A stretch of 64,000 nucleotides of DNA from the NCBI RefSeq assembly GCF_032116555.1, contig NZ_CP134949.1, positions 1,798,001-1,862,000 on the forward strand, in the 5' to 3' direction. Numbering within the stretch: position 1 is the first letter of the stretch; every line of letters begins with the position of its first letter. The position numbers and the translations under genes are program-made. Shown one piece after another: positions 27,811 through 58,888 of this stretch. The notes below the pieces were generated by a model. The model had not been told where the DNA came from, made no database searches, and saw only the letters and a program-made list of their open reading frames with translations. This DNA comes from Halorarum halobium. Its GTDB lineage: Archaea > Halobacteriota > Halobacteria > Halobacteriales > Haloferacaceae.

Positions 27811-28974
27811 TCAGCCGACGAGGCCGCTCACGGCACGGGTCAACGCCGCCGCGGCGGTCCGCACCCGGTCCAGTCGCACGTACTCCCGCTCGGCGTGGGC
27901 GACCGCACCCGCCTCGTCCGCGAGGTGGCCGGGGCCGAACACGACCGTCGGCGTGGGTGCGAAGTACGACGCCTCGGTCGCCGCGCCGAACGGCCGGACG
28001 GAGCCGTCTCCGTCCGCGCCGGCGGTCCGTGCTGCGGCCGCGAGCGTCCCGACGAGGTCGTGGTCCGGGTCGGTGTCGAACGCTTCGAGGAACGGCGTCG
28101 GCCGCTCGGTGAACGAGAACTCGACGCCGACCTCGGGGGCGACCGCCTCCCGGACCGCCGAGAGCAACTCAGTTCGGAACCCCGACGTGGTCTCGGGGGG
28201 AACGGACCGCCTGTCCAGCGTGAGTCGCGCCTCCGCGGGCACCTGGTTCGTCGCCTCGCCGCCGTCGACGCCCGTTGCGGTGAGCGTCGGCGAGCCGAGC
28301 CGCGGGTGCGGCTCCCGGCCCTCGTCGAACCGCCGAACCGCGCCCAGCGCGTCCTCCAGCGCGGCGACCGCGTCGACGCCCGACTCCGGTTCGGCCGCGT
28401 GTGCCGCGCTCCCGGAGAGGGTGAGCGTCCCCTCGAACCGGCCGCGTGCGGCCGTGCAGACGTCACAGTCGGTCGGTTCGCCGACGACGAACAGGTCGCC
28501 ATCGAGCGGGTCGAGGGCTGCCGTCCGTTCGTCGTCGCCGTCGCCGTCGTCACCGCCGTCAGCGCCGACCCCGTACTCGCCCGTGACCAGCGCGTGGGCA
28601 CCCGTCGAGAGCGTCTCCTCGTCGGGCGTGATCGCCAGCGTGAGGCGGCCGGCCGACGGCTCGACCGAGAGGAACGCGGCCAGCAACGCCGCCAGCGGTC
28701 CCTTCGCGTCACAGGATCCGCGCCCCCGGAGTACGTCGCCGTCCCGCTCGACCGGCAGTCCCGGCGGGACCGTGTCGACGTGCGTGTTCAACACGACGTG
28801 GGGTTCGCCCACGCCCTTCGTCGCCCGGACGTTCCCGGCGGCGTCGACGACCGGACTCGCGTCGGCCCGGTCGAGCGTCTCGACCAGGAACGAGCGCATC
28901 TCGTCGACGGATCCGTGGGAGTCAATCCGGACGGCCGCGTCCAGAAATTCGACCGGATCGAACGCCGCACTCAC
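27811..28974 (-). CDS. dapE: Succinyl-diaminopimelate desuccinylase (M20 family)
   Basis: NTHVDTVP, GRGSCDAKG, DEE, GEPT, AHA; last gene of the dap operon. Confidence 0.8.
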   Translation of the reverse strand: MSAAFDPVEFLDAAVRIDSHGSVDEMRSFLVETLDRADASPVVDAAGNVRATKGVGEPHVVLNTHVDTVPPGLPVERDGDVLRGRGSCDAKGPLAALLAAFLSVEPSAGRLTLAITPDEETLSTGAHALVTGEYGVGADGGDDGDGDDERTAALDPLDGDLFVVGEPTDCDVCTAARGRFEGTLTLSGSAAHAAEPESGVDAVAALEDALGAVRRFDEGREPHPRLGSPTLTATGVDGGEATNQVPAEARLTLDRRSVPPETTSGFRTELLSAVREAVAPEVGVEFSFTERPTPFLEAFDTDPDHDLVGTLAAAARTAGADGDGSVRPFGAATEASYFAPTPTVVFGPGHLADEAGAVAHAEREYVRLDRVRTAAAALTRAVSGLVG

Positions 28975-29822
28975 GGCTCGGCCTCCAGCGATCCGGTCGC
29001 CTCGCGCTCGGTGGGGCCGGCGAGCGTCGCCGAACCTTCGGCGGGCACCGTAACGCGCAGGTCGCCGCCCGGCGGAGCCACCACCGACGATTCTCGGTCG
29101 GTTCGGCCGGTTCGGCGCGCCGCCGCGAGGATCGCCACCGCGCCGGTCCCGCAGGCGCGCGTCTCGTCCTCGACCCCGCGCTCGAACGTCCGCTGTAGGA
29201 AGTCCGCGCCGCCGTCCGGGGTCGGTTCCGCGAGGGTGACGTTCGCGCCCTCGGGGAACGCGTCGGCGCTCCGAACGGGCGGCGCGACCGCGTCGAGGTC
29301 CACCGCGTCAACGTCCTCGACGAACGCGACCGCGTGCGGGACGCCGGTGTCGACCGCGGTCACGGTCAGCCCCTCGACCGACTCCTCGACCAGCGGTCCG
29401 CCCCACGTCGTCGGAACGGCCGCGGGTTCGAACGTCGGTCTGCCCATCTCGACCTCGACGGCGTTCGTGGCCGTCCGGACGACCGCCCGTCGGTCGCCAG
29501 CGGGCGTCTCGACGACGAACTCCCTCGCACCGGTCCGCTCGCCGGCCCAGGAGGCGACACACCGCGCGCCGTTCCCGCACATCTCCGCGACCGAGCCGTC
29601 GGGCTGGACGAGCGTCATCCCGACGCGAACCGGGACGGCCTCCGGGTTCAGATCGAGGAACAGGACGCCGTCCGCGCCCCGGCGAGCGCCCGCCTCGACA
29701 CCCGTCTCCCGATCACAGTGGACGACGGCGAACCGGACGCGGTCGGGTACCGGTTCGTCGGCGTCGATGACGAGGAAGTCGTTGCCAGTGCCGTGGTACT
29801 TCACGAACGGGACGGTCGTCAT
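28971..29822 (-). CDS. dapF: Diaminopimelate epimerase
   Basis: KYHGTGNDF, MCGNGARC, GVPH, ERGVEDETRACGTG. Confidence 0.95.
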   Translation of the reverse strand: MTTVPFVKYHGTGNDFLVIDADEPVPDRVRFAVVHCDRETGVEAGARRGADGVLFLDLNPEAVPVRVGMTLVQPDGSVAEMCGNGARCVASWAGERTGAREFVVETPAGDRRAVVRTATNAVEVEMGRPTFEPAAVPTTWGGPLVEESVEGLTVTAVDTGVPHAVAFVEDVDAVDLDAVAPPVRSADAFPEGANVTLAEPTPDGGADFLQRTFERGVEDETRACGTGAVAILAAARRTGRTDRESSVVAPPGGDLRVTVPAEGSATLAGPTEREATGSLEAEP

Positions 29823-31072
29823 CGTTCCAGCACCGTCAGGTCGGCGAGCGACTCGCGCCGCCTGAGCACGTCACCCTCCGGCGAGACGTCGGCCGGTCTG
29901 GGGCGGGAGTTGTACGTCGACGCCATCTCGTAGCCGTAGGCGCCCGCGTTACCGAGCGCGAGGAGGTCCCCCCGTTCGGGGGCGGGGAGCGGGCGACCCT
30001 CACAGAAGGTGTCGCCGCTCTCGCAGATGGGACCGGCGACCGTCACGGGTCGTTCCTCCCGTTCGTCGGCGCCCGGGTCCAGCAGGCGGATCGCGTGGAA
30101 CGCGTCGTACATCGCCGGCCGAAGCAGGTCGGTCATGCCGGCGTCGACGCCCGCGACGACCTCCCCCGCCGACGGCTTGACTGTGTTCACGCGCGTCACC
30201 AGCACGGCCGCGTCGGCGACGAGATAGCGACCGGGTTCGAGCGCCACGGCCGCATCGAGCGCCGACAGTTCCTCGCGCACCGCCGTCGCGACCGCGTCGA
30301 GGTCGAGCGGGGATTCGGTCTCGCGGTACGGGACGCCGACGCCGCCGCCGACGTTCACGTACTCGAGGTCGCCGACCTCGGCCGCCAGTTCCGCGACGCT
30401 CGCCAGGAACTCGCGGTGGGCAGCCAGATCCGCCTCGTCGTGGATGCCGGAGCCGGCGTGGGCGTGCAGGCCGACGAACTCGAAGTCGGCACGCGCGTCA
30501 GCGACGACCTCGTCGACCCGCTCGGCGGGCACGCCGAACTTCGCCGCCGCCCCGGTCCGCACCTTCTCGTGGTGGCCCGCGCCGACGCCGGGGTTCACTC
30601 GGACGCAGAGTCGGCCGTCGTACCCCCGCTCGCGCAGGCGGTCGAGCGTGTCCGCGGCGCCGACGGTGACCGTCAGATCCGCGCCGTCGCGCCACCAGTC
30701 GACCACGGCGTCGAGGTCACGGGCGGGCGGGTTGACCGCGGTGTAGTCGACGTCGTCGCCGCCGAAGCCGGCCTCCAGCGCGCGACCGACTTCGCCGGCC
30801 GACGCACACTCCGCGCCGAACCCCGCCTCCCGGACGGTTTCGAGGACCGCGCGCCCTGCGTTCGCCTTCACCGCGTACCGGAGCGACGCGTCGGGGAACG
30901 CGGCCCGGAACCGCGCGCAGTTCTGGGCGACGCGGTCGAGGTCGGTGACGTACAGCGGCGTCCCGTGCTCGGCAGCGAGTTCGCGCAGGCGCGCCTCGTT
31001 CCAGTCGGCGAGCCGGCGGGCCCCCGGCGAGCCCGTTCCGTCGGTCGGTTCGTCGGCGTCGGGTTCGCTCAT
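29819..31072 (-). CDS. lysA: Diaminopimelate decarboxylase
   Basis: YAVKAN, HAHAGSG, EPGRYLV, GPICESGD, GAYG; start MSEPD overlaps the dapD stop. Confidence 0.94.
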   Translation of the reverse strand: MSEPDADEPTDGTGSPGARRLADWNEARLRELAAEHGTPLYVTDLDRVAQNCARFRAAFPDASLRYAVKANAGRAVLETVREAGFGAECASAGEVGRALEAGFGGDDVDYTAVNPPARDLDAVVDWWRDGADLTVTVGAADTLDRLRERGYDGRLCVRVNPGVGAGHHEKVRTGAAAKFGVPAERVDEVVADARADFEFVGLHAHAGSGIHDEADLAAHREFLASVAELAAEVGDLEYVNVGGGVGVPYRETESPLDLDAVATAVREELSALDAAVALEPGRYLVADAAVLVTRVNTVKPSAGEVVAGVDAGMTDLLRPAMYDAFHAIRLLDPGADEREERPVTVAGPICESGDTFCEGRPLPAPERGDLLALGNAGAYGYEMASTYNSRPRPADVSPEGDVLRRRESLADLTVLER

Positions 31073-31908
31073 TCGCGGAGCGCGTCCTCCCGCCGCGTCG
31101 CCTCCAGCGTCTCCTCTTCGATGTGGGTCGCCACGACGGCCGGCTTGTAGGCCCCGCCCTCGAAGAGGTCGTGCTCGGAGACGCTCGACTCGACGAACCG
31201 CGCGAACGCCCGCCGATCCTCGGGCAGGTGGCCGTAGACGACCTCCTCCTCGACGAGGTCGTACACCGGAATCCTCGGCGTGAGGAGCGTGTTCTCGCCG
31301 ACGACCGAGTTCGCGCCGACGCGGAACCCAGAAGTGACCCGACAGCCCGCGCCCAGTGAGACGCCGTCCTCGACGATCACCGGGGCGTCCTCGACCGGTT
31401 CGAGCACGCCGCCGATCAGCGTGTTCGCGCCGAGCTTCACGCCCTCGCCGAGTTGCGCGCACGAGCCGACCGTGTCACAGGAGTCGACGAGCGTGCCCGC
31501 GCCGACCGACGCGCCGATGTTGACGAACGACGGGCTCATCATGATGGCGTCGTCGCCGAGGTGTGCGCCCCGCCGGAGGACCGTGCCGTCCGGCGTGTTT
31601 CGGGCGCCGCCGGCTTCGAGGCTCTCGGTCTCCCGCAGCGGGAGCACGTCGTAGTAGCCCACGCCGCCGTACTCGCGGCGCTCGGTCTCGCGCAGGCCGA
31701 AGTTGAGCAGGACGCCGCGCTTCACCCACTCGTTCGCCTCCCACGAGGTGACCGAGTCGCCGGTCTTCTCGGCCGCCCGGATTTCGCCGGACTCGAGGGC
31801 GTCGAGGAACGCGTCCAGCGTCGCCCGATCGTCGTCGGTCAGGTCGGACGGCGTCAGGCCGTCGTCGTAGCGGTGCCACAGGTCGTCGATCTCGGGTTCC
31901 AGCGTCAT
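31069..31908 (-). CDS. dapD: Tetrahydrodipicolinate N-succinyltransferase
   Basis: WVKRGVLLNF, MSPSFVNIGA, VGSCAQ, IGGVLEP. Confidence 0.94.
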   Translation of the reverse strand: MTLEPEIDDLWHRYDDGLTPSDLTDDDRATLDAFLDALESGEIRAAEKTGDSVTSWEANEWVKRGVLLNFGLRETERREYGGVGYYDVLPLRETESLEAGGARNTPDGTVLRRGAHLGDDAIMMSPSFVNIGASVGAGTLVDSCDTVGSCAQLGEGVKLGANTLIGGVLEPVEDAPVIVEDGVSLGAGCRVTSGFRVGANSVVGENTLLTPRIPVYDLVEEEVVYGHLPEDRRAFARFVESSVSEHDLFEGGAYKPAVVATHIEEETLEATRREDALRE

Positions 31909-32669
31909 TCGAGTACCTCCGTGAAGTCGTATTCGCCCGCCTCGCGTCCGGCGACCCACGCCGCTGCGTCGAGCGCGCCGGCGGCGAAGATTCGCCGCGA
32001 ACCGGCGCGATGGGTCAGTTCCAGCGTCTCGTCGTCCCCAGCGAGCAGGACCTCGTGTTCGCCGGCGACGTCCCCGGCCCGGCGCGCGTGGACGCCGATC
32101 TCCTCGGGGGAGCGTGGCGCGTCGCCCTCCCGGCCGTGTCGTCGCGCCGTGAGGTCCGGGCGCTCGCGTTCGACGTCCCCGACGAGCGTGAGCGCGGTCC
32201 CGCTCGGCGCGTCCCGCTTGCCGTCGTGGTGCGTCTCCGTCACCTCGACGTCGTACCCGGGAAGCGTTCCGACCGCCTCTCTGACCGCCCCCCGGAGCGC
32301 GGCGATCCCCCGAGAGAAGTTCGACGCGCGGAGCACCGGGACGGTCTCGGCCGCGGCGGTCAGCGCCTCGGCCCCCTCGTCGGTGAACCCGGTGGTTCCG
32401 ACGACGGCCGGGACGCCGGCCTCCGCGCACGCCGAGACGTACTCGACGCTCGACTCGGGGCCGGTGAAGTCGATCAGCGCGTCCGGGTCGCGGTCGGCAA
32501 GCAGTGCGGGGAGGTCGGCCGCGTCGTGAACCTCGCTGCCGGCGACGGGGCCGGTGGCCGAGCGATTGACGGCGAACGCGACCGAGACGTCCTCGCGGTC
32601 GGCCGCCGCCTCGATCAGTTCCCGGCCCATCCGACCGCCCGCGCCCGTCACCGCGACCCGGACGCTCAC
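31905..32669 (-). CDS. dapB: 4-hydroxy-tetrahydrodipicolinate reductase
   Basis: GAGGRMG, IDFT, GTTG, ETHHDGKRDAPSGTA, FAAGA. Confidence 0.95.
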   Translation of the reverse strand: MSVRVAVTGAGGRMGRELIEAAADREDVSVAFAVNRSATGPVAGSEVHDAADLPALLADRDPDALIDFTGPESSVEYVSACAEAGVPAVVGTTGFTDEGAEALTAAAETVPVLRASNFSRGIAALRGAVREAVGTLPGYDVEVTETHHDGKRDAPSGTALTLVGDVERERPDLTARRHGREGDAPRSPEEIGVHARRAGDVAGEHEVLLAGDDETLELTHRAGSRRIFAAGALDAAAWVAGREAGEYDFTEVLE

Positions 32670-33589
32670 GCCGTCTCCACCTCCGAACCGTCGGCGTCGG
32701 CCGTCGCCTCCAGGTCGGCGAGGACGTCGGCCAGCACGGCTCGCGTCTCCTCGCTCGCGCGGGTGAGCGGCAGGCGGAGGTCGGCCGGGCCGTAGCCGCG
32801 GATCTCCATCGCCTCCTTCACCGGAATGGGGTTCGTCTCGCGGAACAGTTCGCGGAACAGCGGCGACAGGTCGTGGTGGACGTCGCGGGCGCGCGCAACG
32901 TCCCCGTCGAGCGCCGCGTGGACCAGTTCGGTCGTCCGCTCGGGTTCGACGTTTGCGGCGACGCTGATGGTGCCGGTGCCGCCGACCGCGATGGTCGGAA
33001 GGGTCAGGCCGTCGTCGCCCGAGAGCACGTCGAACGCCTCCCCGCGGGTCCGCTCGACGATCTCCGAGATGCGGTTCAGATCGCCCGAGGCGGCCTTGTA
33101 CCCCCGAACGTTCGGGTGTTCGGCCAGCTCGACGACCGTGTCGAGATCGAGGCTCCGGCCCGTTCGGGAGGGGACGTTGTAGACGACTTGCGGGAGGTCG
33201 ACGGCGTCCGCGACCGCCGTGAAATGTTCGTACTGGCCGCGCGGCTCGGGCTTGTTGTAGTACGGCGAGATGAGCAACAGCGCGTCCGCGCCCGCCGCCG
33301 CGGCGCGCTCGGAGAGGTCGACGGCCTCGTGGGTCGAGTTCGAGCCGGTGCCCGCGACGACGGGCACGTCGACGGCTTCGACGACGGTCTCGACGACCTC
33401 GCCGTGCTCGTCGTGGGTGAGCGTCGCCGACTCGCCCGTGGAGCCGACGGGGACGAGCCCGTCGACGCCGGCGGCTTCGAGCCGTCGGGCGTCGGCGGCG
33501 AGCTGTTCGTGGTCGACGTCGTTGCTGTCCGTGAACGGCGTTGTCATCGCCGGGTAGACGCCGGCGAACGTGTCGTGGTGTGTCGTCAT
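32666..33589 (-). CDS. dapA: 4-hydroxy-tetrahydrodipicolinate synthase
   Basis: TPF, GSTGES, PYYNKP, YNVPSRT, KAASG, SGDD, NPIPVK. Confidence 0.96.
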   Translation of the reverse strand: MTTHHDTFAGVYPAMTTPFTDSNDVDHEQLAADARRLEAAGVDGLVPVGSTGESATLTHDEHGEVVETVVEAVDVPVVAGTGSNSTHEAVDLSERAAAAGADALLLISPYYNKPEPRGQYEHFTAVADAVDLPQVVYNVPSRTGRSLDLDTVVELAEHPNVRGYKAASGDLNRISEIVERTRGEAFDVLSGDDGLTLPTIAVGGTGTISVAANVEPERTTELVHAALDGDVARARDVHHDLSPLFRELFRETNPIPVKEAMEIRGYGPADLRLPLTRASEETRAVLADVLADLEATADADGSEVETA

Positions 33590-33688
33590 TCGTGTGGGTC
33601 GGTGGTGATCGGTCGCAGGGTAGTCGTCAGCGCGCGTCGGTCGTCCGCGGTCGCCCGGGACGGGGGTGCCACTCCCGCCGCGAGCAGG

Positions 33689-33778
33689 TCACGCGCGTTT
33701 GGGTTTCCGACCCGAGAAGGCGGCCGACACGCCGCGCTGGTGGGGAACGGCCCCGGCGCGACGCGACGTGTCTCGCAT
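33689..33778 (-). CDS. Putative leader peptide of the dap operon, MRDTSRRAGAVPHQRGVSAAFSGRKPKRA (29 aa)
   Basis: ATG 33778 to TGA 33689; ATTAGTAG box at 33800-33807; ends CGG AAA CCC AAA CGC GCG TGA. Confidence 0.6.
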   Translation of the reverse strand: MRDTSRRAGAVPHQRGVSAAFSGRKPKRA

Positions 33779-34007
33779 GAGTGTACCCCGGTGGTGGGGC
33801 TACTAATGCGTTGCGCCAGCGTCCGATGTTGCTCGTCATCCGAACGTGTCCGGTGTGTCGCATTCGGTCCTGTTCCGGTGTCGCTTTCGAGATCGTCCCC
33901 CATCCAGCGAGAAACCAGCACTCGGAAGGAAAAGATCAGACTCCCAGATCATACCCGCGAACACACCTATAAACCCTTTTACCGAGCCCCCCGTCACACC
34001 AAACGCA

Positions 34008-34706
34008 ATGAGCGACCTCCCGGACGATTTCGACTGCACCATCACAAACTGGGAGTACATATACGACCTCTGCAGACAGGTGGCAGACGAGGTGAAGGCG
34101 GCCGACTTCGAGCCCGACGTGGTGGTCGCGCTCGCCCGCGGCGGCTGGTTCGCCGGCCGCTGCATCTGTGACTTCCTCGGCATGGATGACCTCACGAGCC
34201 TGAAGATGGAACACTACGTCGGCACGGCCGAGAAGTCCGGCGAGCCGACGGTCCGCTACCCGATGCCGGAGGGGAGCGTCCAGGGCAAGGACGTGCTCAT
34301 CATCGACGACATCGCCGACACCGGCGGCTCCATCAAGCGCGCCCAGGAGTACGTCGAGGAGCGCGACGGCGGCGAGATCAGGACGGCCACGCTCCAGTTG
34401 CTTCAGAGCTCCACGTTCGAACCCGACTTCATCGCCGAGCGCCTTGAGGAGTGGACCTGGATGGTGTACCCCTGGAACTTCATCGAGGACATGGTCGATC
34501 TCATCTCCGGCGTGATGGAGCGTGCCGATCGGGAGCGGTTCAGCAAGGAGGACGTCCGCCACTACCTCGCCGAGTTCCACGACGTCGACCGCATCGGCAT
34601 GGAGATCGCCCAGCCCGGCCGTCTCGACGAGGTCATGTCCGAGATGGTCCGTCGGGACGTGGTCCGCGAGGTCGACGGCGGCTACCGCCTGCTCGACGCC
34701 GAGTAA
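34008..34706 (+). CDS. Purine phosphoribosyltransferase family protein
   Basis: VVALARGG, VLIIDDIADTGGS, WMVYPW. Confidence 0.9.
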   Translation: MSDLPDDFDCTITNWEYIYDLCRQVADEVKAADFEPDVVVALARGGWFAGRCICDFLGMDDLTSLKMEHYVGTAEKSGEPTVRYPMPEGSVQGKDVLIIDDIADTGGSIKRAQEYVEERDGGEIRTATLQLLQSSTFEPDFIAERLEEWTWMVYPWNFIEDMVDLISGVMERADRERFSKEDVRHYLAEFHDVDRIGMEIAQPGRLDEVMSEMVRRDVVREVDGGYRLLDAE

Positions 34707-56570: not shown

Positions 56571-56621
56571 ATGAACTGCTCCCCGACGCTTCCCATGCGT
56601 ATGCGAACGCACCCCTTCTAG
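56571..56621 (+). CDS. Putative leader peptide of metG, MNCSPTLPMRMRTHPF (16 aa)
   Basis: ATG 56571 to TAG 56621; TTTAGG box at 56540-56545; 3 Met codons. Confidence 0.55.
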   Translation: MNCSPTLPMRMRTHPF

Positions 56622-56770: not shown

Positions 56771-58888
56771 ATGAGCCACGAGGAGTTCCCGACGGACACG
56801 CCGGCGGTGGTTACCTGCGGGTTGCCGTACGCGAACGGCGACCTGCACATCGGCCACCTCCGCACGTACGTGGGCGGCGACGTCTACTCGCGCGCCCTCG
56901 AATCGCTCGGCCAGCGAACCACGTTCGTCTCGGGGTCCGACATGCACGGCACGCCCGTCGCGGTCAACGCCGAGAAGGCGGGCACGGATCCCGAGTCGTT
57001 CGCCCTGGACTGGCACGAGCAGTACGAGGAAACGTTCCCCCGCTTCGACGTCGAGTTCGACAACTACGGGCACACCCACGACGCGACGAACACCGACCTC
57101 ACGCGCGAGTTCGTGCGGACCCTCGAGGAGAACGGCCACGTCTACGAGAAGGAGATCAAGGTCGCCTACGACCCGGAGGCCGACCAGTCGCTTCCGGACC
57201 GCTACGTCGAGGGAACGTGCCCGTACTGCGGGGCGAAGGCGCGAGGCGACGAGTGCGACGAGGGCTGCGGCCGGCACCTCGAACCCGGCGAGGTCGAGAA
57301 CCCACGTTCGACGGTCACCGGCAACCCCGCGGAGTACCGCGACCAGACCCACAAGTTCTTCCGCGTCTCGGCGTTCAAGGAGTACCTCTCGGGCTTTCTT
57401 GACCGGCTCGAAGGGACCTCGAACGCGCGAAATCAGCCCCGCGAGTGGGTCGAGGGCGAGCTCCGGGACTGGTGTATCACCCGTGACATGGACTGGGGCA
57501 TCGACTACCCCGAGATCGAGGGCGAGGAGCCGACCGATCTGGTTCTCTACGTCTGGGTCGACGCGCCCATCGAGTACGTCTCCTCGACGAAGCAGTACTC
57601 CGAGCGCGTCGGCGCCGACGAGTACGACTGGGTCGAGGCCTGGCAGGAGGACGGCGAGATCGTCCACGTCATCGGGCGGGACATCATCCAGCACCACACC
57701 GTGTTCTGGCCCGCGATGTTGCACGGCGTCGACTACGACGAGCCGCGCGCCGTGATGGCCTCCGGGTTCATGACGCTCGACGGCGACGGGTTCTCCACGT
57801 CCCGGAACCGCGCGGTCTGGGCCCGCGAGTACCTCGAGGAGGGGTTCCACCCGGACCTGCTGCGCTACTACCTCGCCACGAACGGCGGGTTCCAGCAGGA
57901 CGTCGACTTCTCGTGGGAGAAGTTCCGCGACCGCGTGAACAACGAACTCGTCGGGACGGTGGGTAACTTCCTCTACCGCTCGCTGCTGTTTGCACACCGC
58001 AACTTCGACGGGACGCCCGACGCCGACGTGTCGCCCGAGGTCGAATCCCGCATCGAGGAAGCCGTCGACGAGTTCGCGGCCGGCGTCAACGACTACTCCG
58101 TGCGCGCGGTCGGCAACGCGACCGTCGAGCTCGCTCGCTTCGGCAACGAGTACATCCAGCGCGAGGAGCCCTGGAACCTCGTCGGTGAGGACGAGGAGGC
58201 CGCCGCCCAAGTGATCCGCGACTGCGTGCAGCTCGCCAGGGCGGTGGCGGTGCTGTTCGAGCCTGTCGCTCCCGGGAAGAGCCAGGAACTGTGGGAAAAG
58301 CTCGGCGAGGACGGCAGCGTTCACGAGGTTCCCGCGGACGCGGCCCTCGAGGCTCCGCCACGCGAGTTCGGCCACCCGGAGGAGCTGTACGAGAAGATCG
58401 AGGACGACCGCGTCGAGGAGCTGAACGAGAAGCTGGAGCGACGGGTCGCCGAAGCGGCGGGCGACGACGATGACGCCGAAAGCGACGGGGACGACGACGC
58501 CGGAACCGAAACCGATGAGGTGACCGCGTCCGGCGAAGCTGACGTGAGCGAGTTCGAACCGATCGAGTCCGACCGGATCAGCTTCGAGGAGTTCCAGGAG
58601 CTCGACCTCCGTGTCGGCGAGATCGTGAGCGCGGAGCCGATCCCCGACGCCGACAAGCTGGTCGCCCTTGCGGTCGACATCGGCGTCGAGACGCGGAACA
58701 TCGTCGCGGGCCTCAAGCAACTCCACGACGTCGAGGCGCTGGCGGGGACGCCGGTCGTCGTCGTCGCCAACCTGGAGAAGGCGGAGCTGTTCGGCCACGA
58801 GTCGAACGGCATGGTGCTCGCGGCGGGCGAGGACGCCGACCTCCTCACCACCCACGAGGACAGCGAACCGGGTACCCGCGTCCGATAG
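56771..58888 (+). CDS. metG: Methionine--tRNA ligase with C-terminal tRNA-binding domain
   Basis: LPYANGDLHIGH, DMHG, CPYC/CDEGC zinc knuckle, YVWVDAP, FSTSR, ESNGMVL. Confidence 0.97.
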   Translation: MSHEEFPTDTPAVVTCGLPYANGDLHIGHLRTYVGGDVYSRALESLGQRTTFVSGSDMHGTPVAVNAEKAGTDPESFALDWHEQYEETFPRFDVEFDNYGHTHDATNTDLTREFVRTLEENGHVYEKEIKVAYDPEADQSLPDRYVEGTCPYCGAKARGDECDEGCGRHLEPGEVENPRSTVTGNPAEYRDQTHKFFRVSAFKEYLSGFLDRLEGTSNARNQPREWVEGELRDWCITRDMDWGIDYPEIEGEEPTDLVLYVWVDAPIEYVSSTKQYSERVGADEYDWVEAWQEDGEIVHVIGRDIIQHHTVFWPAMLHGVDYDEPRAVMASGFMTLDGDGFSTSRNRAVWAREYLEEGFHPDLLRYYLATNGGFQQDVDFSWEKFRDRVNNELVGTVGNFLYRSLLFAHRNFDGTPDADVSPEVESRIEEAVDEFAAGVNDYSVRAVGNATVELARFGNEYIQREEPWNLVGEDEEAAAQVIRDCVQLARAVAVLFEPVAPGKSQELWEKLGEDGSVHEVPADAALEAPPREFGHPEELYEKIEDDRVEELNEKLERRVAEAAGDDDDAESDGDDDAGTETDEVTASGEADVSEFEPIESDRISFEEFQELDLRVGEIVSAEPIPDADKLVALAVDIGVETRNIVAGLKQLHDVEALAGTPVVVVANLEKAELFGHESNGMVLAAGEDADLLTTHEDSEPGTRVR

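Follow-up and report, generated by a model that had tools for sequence, protein, structure and literature searches.

A lysine-codon leader ORF conserved before the dap operon of Halobacteria and its possible role in ribosome-mediated attenuation

Upstream of the lysine biosynthesis operon dapABD-lysA-dapFE of Halorarum halobium lies a short open reading frame (ORF) with two lysine codons close to its end. The question raised by this locus is whether the ORF senses the lysine supply, as leader peptides do in bacterial attenuators, and by what route it could then control the operon. The analysis was centered on a window of 64,000 nucleotides, the whole stretch of DNA under study (contig NZ_CP134949.1, positions 1,798,001 to 1,862,000 of the forward strand), and was extended to dapA loci across the class. 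The coordinates of the features are collected in Table 1.

Table 1. Features of the dap leader and operon, and leaders before other genes of H. halobium (window positions unless prefixed)
Feature	Position	Strand	Basis or remark
BRE/TATA promoter of leader and operon	33800..33815	-	matrix score 9.1
Leaderless 29-codon leader ORF ending R-K-P-K-R-A-stop	33689..33778	-	counterpart in 113 of 116 dapA loci
Candidate 5' hairpin inside leader ORF	33726..33772	-	predicted fold, weakly supported
Putative sensing codons AAA-CCC-AAA (Lys-Pro-Lys)	33698..33706	-	AAA at 33706-33704 and 33700-33698
P1 5' strand: two codons after last Lys and U of stop	33691..33697	-	fold, covariation
P2 conserved hairpin: 12 pairs, G-U/C-G core, G-U-R-G-C loop	33652..33686	-	covariation
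P1 3' strand	33631..33637	-	fold, own versus permuted duplex energy
C/A-rich, G-poor spacer before dapA, without SD or U-tract	33590..33630	-	base composition
dapA	32666..33589	-	TIGR00674 above cut-off; ATG at 33589
dapB	31905..32669	-	TIGR00036 above cut-off
dapD	31069..31896	-	NF008808 above cut-off
lysA	29819..31072	-	TIGR01048 above cut-off
dapF	28971..29822	-	TIGR00652 above cut-off
dapE	27811..28974	-	NF006402 above cut-off
metG leader ORF ending M-R-M-R-T-H-P-F-stop	56571-56621	+	149 nt before metG (methionyl-tRNA synthetase) at 56771
pheS leader ending in Phe run	G000:C1:105014-105094	+	loci L124-L153
ilvB leader ending I-I-V-G-V/A	G000:C1:2140254-2140180	-	loci L181-L209
argG leader ending in Arg codons then P-G	G000:C1:3147039-3146950	-	loci L154-L180

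The leader ORF and its lysine codons

A TATA-like element, ATTAGTAG, was located at 33807-33800 of the minus strand, 22-29 nt before the leader ATG at 33778, just where a preliminary description of this DNA had reported it. Using a promoter matrix trained on the gene starts of the H. halobium genome, the score of 9.1 obtained for this promoter was close to the 90th percentile (8.9) of those gene starts, and the site immediately before dapA scored -9.0. The promoter of the leader also outscored the dapA-proximal one at 109 of 112 loci of the sample described below. The intergenic region is common to the dap promoter and a divergent phosphoribosyltransferase-like gene (window 34008-34706, plus strand), which was below all NCBIfam cut-offs. 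The leader ORF itself had no NCBIfam match.

Both lysine codons of the leader are AAA, whereas the six dap genes contain AAG 15 times and AAA never, and the codon contrast previously noted between the leader and its neighbors was therefore borne out. Over the 2,636 roughly predicted genes used as the genome-wide background, AAA represented 17% of the Lys codons, and 25% of those standing before a CGN codon. No Lys leader was detected in this genome before aspartokinase or the lysyl-tRNA synthetase gene lysS. Single-sequence folding of the window gave no significant result (z of 0.52 for the whole leader and -0.86 for the P2 hairpin), and at least two Lys within the last eight codons were also found in 4 of the 158 promoter-backed short ORFs of the genome. 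Hence, the window sequence by itself is weak evidence, and the case is carried by conservation.

The DNA upstream of dapA was gathered blind, before inspection, from 116 loci of 69 genera of Halobacteria. Three sources were combined: the best 30 dapA matches among 31 relatives, 26 new dapA loci from a search of 221 genomes of the class, and 60 loci hand-picked for family spread from the listed matches of the same 221-genome search, leaving aside its remaining listed matches and 69 unlisted ones. Since related loci are not independent, the key tests were rerun with one locus per genus. An automated rule, which required an ORF ending in Lys immediately upstream of the hairpin, was run on 113 loci after prior exclusion of L027, L029, and L030, which were judged to lack the hairpin.

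The comparison across Halobacteria that the preliminary description had proposed supported its claim of a conserved leader: a Lys-ending ORF together with a hairpin was found before dapA in 113 of the 116 loci and in 67 of the 69 genera. The ORF stood directly before the hairpin in 112 of the 113 rule-tested loci; the other one, L114 (G077), has both, separated by an insertion that carries its own hairpin. The 112 leaders started with ATG (59), GTG (51), or TTG (2) and were mostly 24-31 codons long, with a body conserved in neither sequence nor length, the end excepted. Lysine was confined almost entirely to that end, where the five-codon stretch closing with the final Lys contained two Lys in 94 loci, three in 6, and one in 12, and Lys away from the end accounted for 5 of 2,087 codons. 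The Lys codons were AAA in 202 of 225 cases, and in 117 of 131 with one locus per genus.

The three loci counted as absent differed among themselves. In L027 (G008), from an AT-rich genome, the sequence K-H-K-R-K-R was encoded in AAG codons, without a clear start and farther from a decayed hairpin. No leader was present in L029 (G028) and L030 (G027), from two other families, where an AT-rich box was seen by eye about 22 nt before the dapA ATG; dapA looks leaderless in both.

As the automated rule itself sought Lys, the reading frame was examined in a test of its own, in which the start was taken on promoter score and nothing else and the Lys codon was identified by a motif blind to frame. The Lys codon was in frame with the promoter-chosen start in 91 of 95 unambiguous loci. 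Two overlapping GTG starts were present in 15 further loci, in all of which the top-scoring start was in frame, and another two loci lacked the motif. These counts superseded those of an earlier, noisy version with a crude TATA rule (59 in frame, 21 out of frame, 30 without a start, and 2 without the motif). Furthermore, AAR trimers upstream of the last Lys were a multiple of three nucleotides away from it in 106 of 111 cases. Together, these patterns indicate that the leader DNA is under selection as codons.

The helices around the stop codon

The hairpin that follows the ORF, P2, was supported by comparison among loci: in 83 of the 112, 89.4% of the cells were paired, against 41-52% in slid controls. 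Changes on both sides were observed in 8 of its 12 pairs, and such cells numbered 52 compared with 16 after shuffling, a control that gives too high a significance when the loci are related. Two pairs, a C-G and a G-U, were almost invariant. A GC hairpin had been proposed at this place, and its conservation held; its position is nevertheless 33686-33652, 2-3 nt after the stop codon, and not 33682-33646, and the outer pairing then drawn is not kept in relatives. The distance to P2 was 12-16 nt from the last Lys in 103 of the 112 loci and 2-5 nt from the stop codon in 89. This spacing is not absolute, as seen from the insertion in L114 and from three of the 112 loci (L016, L046, and L051) in which the normal stop is lost and the ORF ends inside the P2 loop.

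The loop reads UGGC in 67 and UAGC in 40 of the 112 loci. In both tRNA-Lys genes the discriminator is G, which together with CCA is complementary to the UGGC form, and an uncharged tRNA-Lys might in principle bind AAA through its anticodon and the loop through its terminal G-C-C-A, as in a T-box and with no need of translation. This explanation is highly improbable, because the UAGC loops do not keep the invariant UGG of a T-box, and because the AAA codons keep frame with the start codon and swap to AAG, which is explained by translation and not by a T-box. Rfam returned no family at the gathering score; its eight matches at E up to 10 were all far below that score and included neither the lysine riboswitch nor a T-box.

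The element was found once in the H. halobium genome by nhmmer. A covariance model matched 18 of the 151 genomes of a phylum sample, with one match each; 17 of these were Halobacteria, all with the match before dapA, and the lone match outside the class was weak (E 0.0017) and not before dapA. The model had no match in G008 or G028.

A second helix, P1, is formed by the 7-10 nt right after the last Lys codon and a segment shortly 3' of P2. Over 109 distinct loci the duplex with the own partner had a mean energy of -10.3 kcal/mol, compared with -8.2 kcal/mol for permuted partners (sd 0.19). The effect persisted with one locus per genus (-10.2 against -8.0, sd 0.25), a value reached by none of 2,000 permutations in 20 draws, and the own partner was also favored in swaps within genera (15 of 21 genera, with one against and five tied). 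A control segment showed no effect in the own-versus-permuted test. P1 is weak in many loci and reached at least 4 bp in just 53% of the full-leader folds, so that it is not universal. Additionally, a candidate hairpin in the 5' part of the ORF had a mean z of -1.5 over 111 leaders, 33% of which were below -2.

Downstream of P1, the spacer contained C 0.41, A 0.30, G 0.18, and U 0.10 over the 112 loci. In the window, 99 nt separate the leader stop from the dapA ATG, an interval that the preliminary description had called C-rich and free of an AT-rich box. An intrinsic terminator, that is, a GC hairpin with a U-tract, was absent: a U-run of at least four followed P2 in 12 of the 112 loci and none did in the window, the runs being of 2 nt or less in 78 of 112. 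A short pyrimidine patch lies 3-5 nt after P2 (U 0.32-0.46). Two-state folding of the 112 leaders yielded no consistent alternative antiterminator helix, and accessibility downstream of P2 was nearly equal in the masked and free states. That no such helix emerged from the folding, and that P1 was present in only 53% of the folds, count against a reading as attenuation.

Leader RNA in Haloferax volcanii and the control of dapA

Published data on Haloferax volcanii bear on how the leader is expressed, within the parts of each source covered here. A minus-strand transcription start site (TSS) is given at 1006790, with a coverage of 855 and a link to the known RNA HVO_1101s (PMC4983044). The leader ORF of this species occupies 1006790-1006704, starts with GTG, and ends F-F-S-K-K-R-A-Y-stop (PMC10117724). 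The TSS therefore coincides with the G of the GTG, and the consecutive minus-strand rows of the TSS table show no second site from there to dapA (PMC4983044). The preliminary description would have been contradicted by a start downstream of the ORF; the mapped one is at the ORF. A single transcript, 1006782-1004090, spans four genes (PMC6490895).

The same start-site rows argue against an internal promoter in the A-tract. This possibility was considered together with a frameshift or read-through that would fuse the leader to DapA, given that an AT-rich run is found at the Lys codons in many loci and that a run of A ahead of a hairpin is reminiscent of a slippery site. Many other loci have K-x-K without the run, and the distance from the stop codon to dapA fell in frames 0, 1, and 2 in 39, 43, and 30 loci, respectively, so that no fusion protein seems intended; the fusion was rejected on this lack of a conserved frame. 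As a whole, an explanation by frameshift or internal promoter is hardly credible.

Leader RNA was far more abundant than dapA RNA in H. volcanii (712, 668, and 888 rpkm against 16, 85, and 64; PMC10117724), that is, 44-, 8-, and 14-fold. This step-down may reflect 5' bias, the stability of the leader, or the decay of untranslated mRNA. Footprints amounted to 311, 139, and 532 rpkm on the leader and to 96, 92, and 124 on dapA (PMC10117724). The leader ORF appears in the unfiltered table only, with a DeepRibo score of -1.69 and a translation efficiency of 0.2-0.6 (PMC10117724), and the harringtonine start list, in the portion covered of the PMC7261190 supplement, did not include it. The DeepRibo score, the low efficiency, and the absence from this list count against translation of the leader ORF, whereas the footprints on it and the kept frame speak for translation. 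As for the 3' end of the leader, the searched part of the PMC7237163 supplement had no match for the locus, and the part of PMC12482152 considered contained nothing on it. In a reporter tested in H. volcanii, termination at a hairpin that has no T-stretch reached 59% (PMC7237163).

Taken together, the conserved ORF end, the frame, and the bias to AAA make it very probable that the element is a translated lysine sensor at which ribosomes stall. The geometry agrees with this. Ribosome footprints of H. volcanii are 27 nt long and begin 12 nt upstream of the P site (PMC7261190), which by our own arithmetic leaves 9 nt covered beyond the A-site codon. With P2 12-16 nt away, a ribosome waiting at the last AAA would span exactly the 5' strand of P1 and end short of P2, and a ribosome at the stop codon, 2-5 nt from P2 in most loci, would cover the base of that hairpin.

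As to the output, the evidence leans slightly towards a sensor that governs read-through into dapABD-lysA-dapFE by premature termination or co-transcriptional cleavage. When lysyl-tRNA is ample, the ribosome would pass the AAA codons, melt the base of P2 at the stop codon, and depart; after its release, P1 would close around P2, and the untranslated RNA would be terminated or cut before dapA, leaving abundant leader RNA. Under lysine shortage, the ribosome would pause with AAA in the A site and mask 9 nt of the P1 5' strand, with P2 intact, and the operon would be transcribed. The choice of the "on" state is made here from what a biosynthetic operon would be expected to need. Because a U-tract is lacking, termination would, speculatively, be brought about by the hairpin together with a factor such as aCPSF1/FttA. 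FttA favors U-rich RNA (PMC11616081, in the part covered), which, given the U-poor spacer, counts against an FttA termination step.

The original reading of the locus as an attenuator is partly supported: the ORF with Lys codons at its end, the preference for AAA, and the hairpin all proved to be conserved. It had missed the outer helix P1 and the sister leaders before four other genes.

With the same Lys sensor, closure of P1 and P2 after ribosome release could instead block (re-)initiation at dapA, the step-down in RNA being secondary polarity or decay. All the sequence evidence for the sensor fits this mechanism equally, as does the lack of a U-tract; stable 5' UTR structures are reported to block translation in H. 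volcanii (PMC8241225, in the part covered), and the closest leaderless precedent, the mycobacterial polycysteine ORFs, works on translation (10.1101/834739, in the part covered). Nevertheless, the dapA start region was unpaired in both modeled states (0.71 free, 0.77 masked), an SD-like word occurred in the spacer of 1 of the 112 loci, the length of the spacer ranges between about 80 and 260 nt, and the portion of the H. volcanii data covered gives dapA a translation efficiency of 1-6 (PMC10117724). On balance, a translational output seems rather unlikely.

Another way of using the same sensor would be post-transcriptional: once the mRNA is complete, P1 and P2 would be recognized by a nuclease or bound by a protein, and cutting would remove the leader and destabilize the operon mRNA. 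The conserved letters of the loop and the invariant G-U and C-G pairs suggest recognition by a protein, and a stable leader RNA would also fit. Sequence cannot separate this option from cleavage by FttA during transcription, and we know of no cleavage site; we regard it as improbable.

Sister leaders and comparison with known systems

A scan of the H. halobium genome revealed leaderless ORFs ending in Phe before pheS, in Ile/Val before ilvB, in Arg before argG, and in Met before metG. By tail rules written after viewing the data, counterparts were found in relatives at 18 of 30 pheS, 21 of 29 ilvB, and 22 of 27 argG loci, and by eye a Met-Arg-ending counterpart was present in 12 of 29 metG loci. 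No leader with a promoter score of at least 4 was detected in this genome before trpC, trpD, serA, hisG, or thrC. A 13-codon promoter-backed ORF at G000:C1:3281471 (minus strand) ends G-W-W-L-G, with a stop codon that runs into the beginning of a gene for 248 aa.

The pheS leader precedes a hairpin whose GGA/GAAA internal loop is conserved, and the codons behind the Phe run often give rise to an outer helix; the metG counterparts are mostly followed by a pheS-like GG(T/C)GGA motif; this hairpin motif, shared by pheS and metG, is distinct from P2. At ilvB and argG, the conserved helix extends across the end of the ORF and its stop codon, like P1: GTAGGGG/CCCCTAC followed by a G-poor tract in ilvB, and a short helix in argG. 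The own-versus-swapped test did not discriminate at pheS, argG, and ilvB, whose helix strands hardly vary among loci. In H. volcanii, a TSS lies 212 nt upstream of pheS, and argG, which has a second, proximal promoter, has two TSSs in line with it (PMC4983044, in the rows covered). The metG gene also has a proximal promoter of its own. The Arg codons of the argG leader were CGA in 53 of 73 cases; since Arg-rich ORFs are frequent by chance in GC-rich DNA, the argG case leans on its conserved ending.

That the terminal residue follows the amino acid of the gene is the best argument for supply sensors. It also weighs against the possibility that the short basic peptide, by arresting on the nascent chain or acting in trans, or the leader as an sRNA, acts itself, the Lys codons then sensing no supply. 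In favor of an acting product, the residue after the last Lys is Arg in 101 of the 112 dapA leaders, Phe is common 3-4 codons before that Lys, and leader RNA is abundant. Against it stand the lack of conservation in the rest of the peptide, the choice of AAA over AAG, which is a signal at the codon level, and the switch of the terminal residues to the cognate amino acid at pheS, ilvB, argG, and metG. Such a function is very unlikely. Returning to codon sensing, the five loci might represent class-wide leaderless leader-peptide sensors in Halobacteria (Lys at dapA, Ile/Val at ilvB, Arg at argG, Phe at pheS, and Met at metG), where premature termination, driven by a factor and independent of U-tracts, would be gated by a helix that begins right behind the hungry codons; this generalization is put forward tentatively, as somewhat short of probable.

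Should the proposed mechanism be true, it would represent natural ribosome-mediated attenuation in archaea, with the coupling of transcription and translation used in vivo for gene control. The annotated sRNA HVO_1101s would become an attenuation product, and the leaders could be a source of amino-acid-responsive switches for haloarchaea. With a leader of about 200 nt and a mapped start in the genetically tractable H. volcanii, precise mutations are testable, and the sister leaders offer codon-swap controls. Full-text literature searches, which cover few subscription papers, showed no report of the dap leader or of any archaeal leader-peptide attenuator. In the parts of these sources covered, exclusion of FttA by the ribosome is given as a hypothesis (PMC8116511, PMC11616081), and ribosome control of archaeal termination is either a hypothesis or attenuation goes unmentioned (PMC8116511, PMC13675443). 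According to the covered part of a 2021 paper, the fluoride riboswitch was, among the natural riboswitches of archaea, the only one with experimental proof (PMC8241225).

Among the systems already known, several share part of the design. Lysine genes are likewise controlled from the 5' leader by the lysine riboswitch (L-box) and the T-box, in contrast with which the dap element is short, read as codons, and without an Rfam match. Control of an archaeal amino-acid operon by charged-tRNA supply was suggested earlier in the second-codon Trp proposal for trpY of Methanothermobacter; that proposal works through the synthesis of a repressor protein, whereas the dap leader would work through an RNA switch. 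In E. coli tnaC and other Rho-dependent leaders there is no intrinsic terminator and a C-rich, G-poor tract follows the ORF, with arrest by the nascent peptide at tnaC. The dap leader resembles them in these two traits and in the likely dependence of termination on a factor, but it would sense by hungry codons and its candidate factor, FttA, prefers U-rich RNA; to our knowledge, Archaea have no Rho. Further examples of leader control by Rho are given in PMC13675443 (in the part covered).

The mycobacterial polycysteine leaders are similar in that a leaderless ORF opens the operon, a stalled ribosome blocks a duplex, and several loci follow one design (10.1101/834739, in the part covered). Their duplex hides a downstream ribosome-binding site, unlike the dap leader, which has no SD and leaves the dapA start unpaired in both modeled states.

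Finally, the bacterial leader-peptide attenuators include trpL, hisL, thrL, leuL, ilvL, pheL, and pheM, and are also found before aminoacyl-tRNA synthetase genes (pheM-pheST). A theory of starvation-sensitive codons is said to be available for bacteria. The dap leader shares with these attenuators a short first ORF with codons for the product of the operon, a helix overlapping the stall site, and an abundant leader RNA; it differs in being archaeal and leaderless, in having two sensing codons, and in lacking a hairpin-plus-U-tract terminator, a detectable antiterminator, and an Rfam match. Control by a ribosome stalled on a leader ORF is familiar from bacteria, and in Halobacteria the dap leader probably serves to signal a lack of lysine in this way.
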